Under the pieces are notes generated by a model. It made no database searches, was not told the origin of the DNA, and was given only the letters and a program-made list of their open reading frames with translations. From the sequence record PV844354.1: DNA of 57,133 nucleotides; one strand, given 5' to 3'. The translations under genes and the position numbers were made by a program. This document shows positions 41,613-42,081 of this stretch, one piece after another. Source of the stretch: Pseudomonas phage EKU1. Positions within the stretch are counted from its first letter, which is position 1, and each line of letters opens with the position of its first letter.

Positions 41613-42081
41613 ATGCGTCCCAACCTCCTCGAAGCCCTCCGCGCAATGACGGAGGGCGAGCTGTACGCCGCCCTGTACCAGGACCCCCTCACCGGGGTCC
41701 TGAACCGCCGGGCCTTCACCGGAGCCCTCGGGGAGGCCCGGGCCGTCGCCCTCGTTGATCTGGACTCGCTGAAGTGGATCAACGACAACCTGGGCCACCG
41801 CGCCGGTGATCGAGCCCTCCAGGTCCTGGCGGACGCCCTCGTGCGATCCTTCGGAGCAGACTGGGTGTTCCGCGTGTCGGGCGATGAGTTCGCGGTGATG
41901 GGCGGGAGCGCCCCGCGTCTCGCCCGGGCTCGCGGTCCTCCGCGCGACAATCCCGGGCTTCTGCTTCGGGACCGGGACCGAGCTGGCGGAGGCGGACGGC
42001 GAACTGATCCACGACAAGGCGAGGCGGGAGCGGTCCGGCCTTCGTGCCGCGCGAGGACTCCGACCCCTTTCGGGTCGATTG
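41613..42081 (+). CDS. Compact stand-alone GGDEF-domain protein (diguanylate-cyclase-like) with an SGDEF active-site motif; ~156 aa; two apparent frameshifts
   Basis: LYQDPLTGVLNRRAFTGALGEARAVALVDLDSLKWINDNLGHRAGDRALQVLADALVRSF…VFRVSGDEFAVMG…GFCFGTGTELAEADGELIHDKARRERSG matches D.LTGL.NRR.F…DiD.FK.iND..GH..GD…R.GG(D/E)EF…AD.ALY.AK..GRN; stop TGA at 42079-42081 just before the next promoter. Confidence 0.65.

Follow-up and report, generated by a model that had tools for sequence, protein, structure and literature searches.

The window analysed here is the whole 57,133-nucleotide stretch of Pseudomonas phage EKU1 DNA deposited as PV844354.1. It carries a stand-alone gene for a trimmed GGDEF domain, an ortholog of YuA gp44 and Churro_042 that is referred to below as gp44, together with the neighbouring genes and signals listed in Table 1. 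The stop codon of the upstream gene (41606–41608) lies 4 nt before the GGDEF start codon, and in the Churro record a ribosome binding site is annotated at the same place as the GGAGGA of the window. A preliminary description of this DNA had the gene running from 41613 to 42081; its start and its length of 156 aa hold, but the TGA stop codon occupies positions 42080–42082 and the end is therefore 42082.

Table 1. Coordinates of gp44, its neighbours and the two frameshifts in PV844354.1
Feature	Position	Strand	Remarks
Stand-alone trimmed GGDEF gene (gp44)	41613..42082	+	156 aa; ortholog of YuA gp44 / Churro_042
Shine-Dalgarno sequence GGAGGA	41599..41604	+	8 nt 5' of ATG, within 3' end of upstream gene
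Promoter-like repeat TTTACT-17 nt-TATACT	42097..42125	+	14 nt past gp44 stop; precedes ArdB/KlcA gene
Second copy of promoter-like repeat	39606..39634	+	start of gp42-gp43-gp44 unit
Upstream gene, YuA gp43 / Churro_041 homolog	40726..41608	+	294 aa; frameshifted in window
ArdB/KlcA-type antirestriction gene (PF03230)	42175..42579	+	middle overwritten by junk patch 42248-42393
First frameshift, 2-bp deletion	41924..41927 (~41926)	+	CCC--GGG vs CCCATGGG in vanta and Churro
Second frameshift, 1-bp insertion	42066..42072 (~42071)	+	in conserved PPW tail; CCCCTTTCGGG vs CCCCCGTGGG in vanta and Churro

The two promoter-like copies bracket gp42, gp43 and gp44, so that the GGDEF gene is the last of a three-gene unit; the ArdB/KlcA gene, 3' of gp44, is the first of the next. 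The 30-nt repeat has no match in any of 100 shuffles of the window, and consensus promoter sites occur on average 0.1 times in shuffles of the region. Both copies of the 29-nt promoter-like repeat are kept in Churro, vanta and YuA, and the YuA annotation describes them as a 'putative sigma70 promoter requiring phage-encoded cofactor'. The gene had been described as sitting directly upstream of a conserved phage promoter; the repeat is confirmed at that position, as a predicted promoter, with gp44 at the end of its transcription unit. Both copies also hold an inverted repeat, CCTCCG...CGGAGG, across the −35 region. Neither of the operon partners, gp42 or gp43, has a Pfam match.

As deposited, the GGDEF gene requires three reading frames, owing to two indels. 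The first frame runs from the ATG through MRPNLLEALRAMTEGELYAALYQDPLTGVLNRRAF, LVDLDSLKWINDNLGHRAGD and FRVSGDEFAVMGGSAPRLA before the frame is lost; the second carries GLAVLRATIPGFCFGTGTELAEADGELIHDKARRERSGLRAARGLRP, and the third supplies the last codons and the TGA. The motifs DPLTGVLNRRAF, LVDLDSLKWIND, GHRAGD and SGDEF all stand in one frame, with ADGELIHDKARRE in the second. For frame correction the reference was the gene as it stands in phages vanta and Churro, intact at 471 nt, and against it exactly two indels are found, the number that the preliminary description had given. Correction yields a 156-aa open reading frame without an internal stop, in which the catalytic motifs are kept; all of the motifs originally quoted are present on the + strand from the ATG at 41613. 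Codon 118 of the corrected gene (41962–41964) encodes Cys (TGC) in the window and Ser118 (AGC) in relatives. This residue belongs to the conserved FSFG strand, and of 175 homologs 166 have S and 9 have T here; judged from the sequence, S118C is either a further sequence error or a rare variant.

The state of the surrounding sequence bears on how the two frameshifts are to be read. Between 37968 and 42247 (4.28 kb) the window differs from vanta by 50 indels, mostly of 1–2 bp, or ~11.7 per kb, compared to 11 gap openings in 6 kb (~1.8 per kb) between Churro and vanta, and nearly every gene in this region is split into several frames. The window contains 57 homopolymer runs of >=8 bases, clustered in patches. 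The C/G/A homopolymer patches at 37832–37967, 42248–42393 and 42944–43072 align to no relative and stand where real sequence should be. Further clusters of such runs, known from run clustering alone, lie at 11431–11555, 25039–25105, 28588–28689, 47741–47864 and 49539–49793. All of these patches have the appearance of read or assembly artefacts. Given the indel density across the region, the junk patches and the neighbouring genes broken in the same manner, the sequence context marks the two gp44 frameshifts as sequencing or assembly errors. That gp44 of EKU1 is instead a genuine pseudogene, killed by the two frameshifts, is highly improbable. The deposited sequence cannot be read through, and the window copy carries the unusual S118C change, but the same indel density runs through all neighbouring genes, the homopolymer patch at 42248–42393 is one of those that overwrite real sequence, and the full-length, single-piece match in every sequenced relative indicates that the gene is intact there. 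Such tblastn matches were obtained in ~48 phage records, all of them Yuavirus or Bordetella Vojvodinavirus.

The gp44 region is 97% identical to Pseudomonas phages vanta and Churro and 87% identical to YuA, while the first 25 kb of the window is ~93% identical to many Yuavirus genomes. By these identities the window is a P. aeruginosa phage of the genus Yuavirus, family Mesyanzhinovviridae. Since the region matches Yuavirus phages of P. aeruginosa, the alphaproteobacterial host assumed in the preliminary description is wrong: the host is Pseudomonas aeruginosa, a gammaproteobacterium, and all close relatives infect this species. The accompanying idea that the gene might act on common phage receptors survives in part, in that holdfast and alphaproteobacterial biology do not apply, whereas pili do, because YuA depends on type IV pili. 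Two other records, ON165687 (Sphaerotilus phage SN1) and PP337211 (Escherichia phage ERS-1, 175 kb), are ~93% and 83% identical, respectively, to this Yuavirus DNA, the latter in four separate places, which suggests mislabelled hosts or chimeric assemblies.

As an entity gp44 is already known, being the ortholog of a long-annotated phage gene. The window protein is 95% identical to Churro_042 over residues 1–104 and 88% over residues 102–152. Churro_042 is annotated as a 'putative diguanylate-cyclase GGDEF-like protein', the YuA record states that gp44 'contains diguanylate-cyclase domain; putative role in host cell conversion', and many relatives are labelled 'diguanylate-cyclase GGDEF domain protein'. 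As the gene has been annotated in the Yuavirus group for years, it is no discovery, and the novelty that the first account implied was overstated; the YuA record already gives both the GGDEF domain of gp44 and the downstream putative promoter. Among Churro, vanta and YuA, dN/dS is 0.35–0.40, with changes mostly outside the motifs, which indicates no more than moderate constraint. The gp44-type gene is discussed in a 2021 paper on Bordetella phage LK3, where its occurrence in Yuavirus is noted as well; LK3 lysogens, which carry the ortholog, over-produce biofilm, and the paper is without enzymology (PMC8471281). For phage GGDEF proteins in general, the searchable literature contains annotations and speculation only and no enzymology.

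The protein matches the Pfam GGDEF family PF00990 with E=3e-15 (56–57 bits against a cutoff of 23.8) and TIGR00254 with 57.7 bits (cutoff 37.4). As both scores exceed the curated cutoffs, the motif pattern is real, far beyond chance. The standard GGDEF profile aligns over the first half only (positions 2–87 of 161).

Conservation was counted over 175 stand-alone homolog clusters. At the start of the domain, D24 of the DxLT motif is kept in 168/175, and N31 and R32 in 175/175 each. The metal-binding region is formed by D49 (175/175), D51 (174/175) and K54 (173/175), in the D-x-D-x-x-K strand for which we take the equivalents in PleD to be D327 and K332. The candidate guanine-specifying residues, N57 (175/175) and D66 (167/175), presumably correspond to N335 and D344 of PleD, and on the strength of these two residues guanine specificity is predicted. 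In the signature motif and just before it, R87 is present in 158/175, G90 in 174/175, and D91 and E92 in 175/175 each, while F93 is invariant or nearly so. The first position of the GGDEF motif is more variable, being S in 86, G in 46 and A in 37 of the 175; it is S in the window. Both S and A at this position have been reported as compatible with activity in cellular cyclases.

Towards the C-terminus the assignment is less straightforward. K136 and R139 are each conserved in 172/175, and the spacing A128-D129-x-x-L132-x-x-x-K136 fits the canonical AD-x-AL-x-x-AK (in its tyrosine-containing form AD-x-AL-Y-x-AK), with R139 close by. Alignment to SadC by hmmsearch and hhalign, on the other hand, pairs R145-A-x-R148-G149 of the tail with SadC RAKRGG, and both basic sets are invariant. 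The register of the phosphate-binding Lys/Arg of the last helix, presumably K442 and R446 in PleD, is ambiguous because these alignments conflict with the motif spacing and with the helix boundaries of the AlphaFold2 model. In place of the canonical domain end stands an invariant tail, G143-x-R145-A-x-R148-G149-x-x-P152-P-W.

The RxxD I-site is typical of the GGDEF family, though not obligatory. In the window protein its position is occupied by F80-G-A-D83, and the Arg position is F in 145/175 homologs, from which it follows that the product-inhibition site is absent across the trimmed subfamily. The original view, that gp44 is a minimal GGDEF protein standing alone, with its catalytic signature complete but with neither a sensor domain nor an I-site, is thus supported.

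An AlphaFold2 model was made on a 95%-identical ortholog (P0001) from a 34-sequence alignment, with a mean pLDDT of 95.8 and a pTM of 0.88. It consists of two short N-terminal helices (3–10 and 14–22) followed by the GGDEF core, and its last 15 residues form an ordered tail which replaces the final strand. In a Foldseek search against the PDB, all 50 matches listed are GGDEF-domain structures (E ~1e-8 to 1e-6, TM 0.5–0.7), including DgcB, PleD, T. maritima DGC, GacA, DgcR, DgcZ, SadC, YfiN, WspR and SiaD. Compared to SadC, helix alpha1 is ~11 residues shorter and ~10 residues after alpha3 are missing; the domain as a whole is ~25 residues shorter than canonical GGDEF domains. The trimmed helix and after-alpha3 segment, together with the tail in place of the final strand, explain why standard profiles align to the first half only. 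Kinship with mCpol, Cas10 or defence systems was rejected: apart from GGDEF, Pfam at E<=1 gave only a glycosyltransferase match below threshold and none to mCpol, Cas10 or CD-NTase families, and the defence-system models of PADLOC gave no match.

A word-indexed search retrieved 305 relatives, and an exhaustive profile search gave 216 clusters at E<=1e-30, well apart from 472,845 generic GGDEF hits (E<=0.001). Contigs with stand-alone homologs look phage-like, carrying terminase, holin, Prim-Pol/D5 and small-ORF arrays. The neighbours of the homologs vary (PDDEXK and UvrD; NUDIX and RF-1; Prim-Pol and RNR; small ORFs), and a look at four further sets of phage contigs (L003-L006, L008, L009) revealed no conserved partner gene. 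One distant stand-alone homolog, around 8001–8486 of the 137-kb phage-like contig VAOU01038660.1 (L005), has NUDIX, RF-1-like, amidoligase, peptide deformylase and NADAR/YAcAr genes as neighbours, a neighbourhood that looks like one of accessory or counter-defence type.

Besides the stand-alone genes, the full-length module (profile positions 6–153) is found inside proteins of 1,000–5,500 aa with E-values of 1e-35 to 1e-56. Three of these giant proteins, when scanned with Pfam, proved to be polyvalent, with LPD1, LPD5, LPD38, LPD39, ART-PolyVal, and an Eco57I-type methylase and SNF2 helicase. Tandem pairs of the module occur in two-copy proteins of 480–540 aa (P0121-P0123), in which the SGDEF and DxDSLK motifs are kept in both copies, and in many giant polyvalent proteins; P0124, P0130, P0131, P0151, P0187, P0197, P0223, P0248 and P0251 are also tandem examples. 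GGDEF catalysis needs two half-sites, and the tandem pairs fit such a reaction. By sequence, the same GGDEF module is common to stand-alone phage genes and polyvalent proteins. GGDEF domains had already been noted in polyvalent proteins of phages and conjugative elements by Iyer et al. 2017, who suggested that they interfere with host nucleotide signalling or act against rival elements (PMC5512222). What appears to be new here is the delineation, from sequence comparison, of a trimmed GGDEF subfamily with its own RAxRGxxPPW tail, so far seen only in phage-like contigs and polyvalent proteins.

On balance, and with moderate confidence, the motifs and the model point to gp44 as a diguanylate cyclase that is active and unregulated and increases the c-di-GMP of its host, its frameshifts being errors. 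We infer its enzyme activity, product, dimerisation and downstream phenotype along the following lines. The protein would consist of a trimmed GGDEF catalytic domain preceded by a short stalk of N-terminal helices, without a sensor or an RxxD site, and would be transcribed together with gp42 and gp43 from the phage promoter repeat. Two copies would dimerise, each binding GTP and Mg2+, and jointly make c-di-GMP. On their own, GGDEF domains often show little activity until something brings them together as dimers; for gp44, the predicted N-terminal helices (3–22) and the tandem module pairs lend indirect support to catalysis as a dimer. Once the protein is made and dimerised, constitutive, uninhibited synthesis is predicted, since it has neither a sensor domain nor an I-site, and the host c-di-GMP pool would rise during infection.

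The most likely benefit to the phage would be that it shuts its own receptor. Adsorption of YuA is dependent on type IV pili (T4P), and c-di-GMP induces plzR, whose product PlzR binds PilZ and abolishes both T4P and YuA adsorption (PMC11461919). In this way gp44 may shut down T4P through PlzR, with c-di-GMP inducing plzR and PlzR blocking T4P assembly at PilZ; superinfecting phages would then be excluded, and the cell would be pushed towards a sessile state. This PlzR route in the literature, and other phages which raise c-di-GMP, make it plausible that the receptor is shut down and superinfection excluded, or that the host is converted to another lifestyle. Examples from P. aeruginosa, both of them indirect, are YIP of PB1-like phages, a peptide which binds the host cyclase YfiN (PMC8085984), and Eht1/Eht2 of phage JBD44 (PMC11898732).

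Several observations weigh against the diguanylate cyclase reading. Standard profiles align to their first half only and the domain is ~25 residues short; the first Gly of GGDEF is Ser, the mapping of the last-helix Lys/Arg is ambiguous, and the window copy has Cys where 166/175 relatives have Ser118. The PlzR/T4P link comes from host literature, and dN/dS shows moderate constraint only. One rival reading is that gp44 is an active enzyme with another product, such as linear pppGpG, cGAMP, c-di-AMP or another oligonucleotide, serving as a decoy or competitor against host nucleotide-based immunity. The trimmed subfamily, in which a unique invariant tail replaces the canonical domain end, the occurrence of the module in injected polyvalent proteins carrying anti-defence domains, the position of gp44 next to an ArdB/KlcA antirestriction gene, and the proposal of interference with host nucleotide signalling (Iyer et al. 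2017; PMC5512222) all favour such a role. It is nevertheless unlikely, as the guanine-specifying N57 and D66 are kept (175/175 and 167/175) and no mCpol, Cas10, CD-NTase (Pfam, E<=1) or PADLOC match was obtained. Hypr GGDEF domains, which accept ATP and produce cGAMP, have Ser or Thr in place of the guanine-specifying Asp (PleD D344), whereas D66 is kept in the window protein as in most homologs.

Even less likely is a catalytically inert gp44 that merely binds, either as a sponge or receptor for GTP or c-di-GMP or as a modulator of a host cyclase or other protein. Many bacterial GGDEF domains are degenerate receptors, and the non-Gly first motif residue and the uncertain mapping of the last-helix Lys/Arg would suit one; the phage peptide YIP, in acting by binding YfiN, provides a precedent. 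Against this, D49, D91 and E92 never vary, and nearly every member lacks RxxD. Degenerate GGDEF receptors usually show the reverse, losing the acidic catalytic residues while keeping the RxxD site, and cellular cyclases with S, A or G as the first motif residue are reported to remain active.

If gp44, as an active diguanylate cyclase, floods the cell with c-di-GMP, the virus would have direct access to the main switch by which P. aeruginosa sets its lifestyle and which controls biofilm, motility and type IV pili, with a bearing on superinfection exclusion too. Relevance to phage therapy follows from the use of Yuaviruses in cocktails, where a gene that promotes biofilm is unwanted. The tie to polyvalent proteins suggests wide use of the same small enzyme by phages and plasmids. 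A bolder and rather unlikely extension is that the trimmed subfamily, which lacks an I-site, has a tail of its own and is found both free-standing in many phages and in tandem inside injected polyvalent proteins, is a dedicated conflict weapon. At DNA entry or shortly afterwards it would release c-di-GMP, or a non-canonical guanine nucleotide, in an unregulated burst. If so, surface receptors would be shut to rival elements or host nucleotide-based immunity would be jammed, and superinfection exclusion or counter-defence would for the first time have been traced to a second-messenger synthase encoded by a virus.

Set beside known systems, gp44 is closest to YuA gp44 and its orthologs (Churro_042 and those of MP1412, AN14, PaSz-4 and vanta, as well as of Bordetella Vojvodinavirus such as LK3 and CN1), at 62–97% protein identity. 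It has in common with them the length of 156 aa and the place between gp43 and the promoter repeat and ArdB gene, and differs only by the two indels, the low quality of the window sequence and a small number of substitutions (S118C, D124E/M125L). With the GGDEF modules of polyvalent proteins it shares the SGDEF, FSFG and RAxRGxxP motifs, which place them in the same trimmed subfamily; the window protein comes from a free-standing 156-aa ORF that has a ribosome binding site and a stop codon to itself, whereas the polyvalent modules are embedded in giant injected proteins, are often in tandem and usually have His rather than Arg before SGDEF.

Canonical diguanylate cyclases such as PleD, SadC, YfiN/TpbB, DgcB and DgcZ share with gp44 the GGDEF fold, the DxLT start motif and the elements D-x-D-x-x-K-x-x-N-D...G-H-x-x-G-D, R-x-[G/S]GDEF and A-D-x-x-L-x-x-x-K. 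The window protein is 20–31% identical to them and departs from them in its lack of a sensor or receiver domain, of an RxxD I-site and of ~10 residues after alpha3, in its shorter alpha1, and in the RAxRGxxPPW tail in place of the final strand. With YIP and Eht1/Eht2 it has the proposed outcome in common, namely higher c-di-GMP and reduced motility in infected P. aeruginosa. These, however, are small peptides or proteins which act on host enzymes, whereas gp44 would make the messenger itself.
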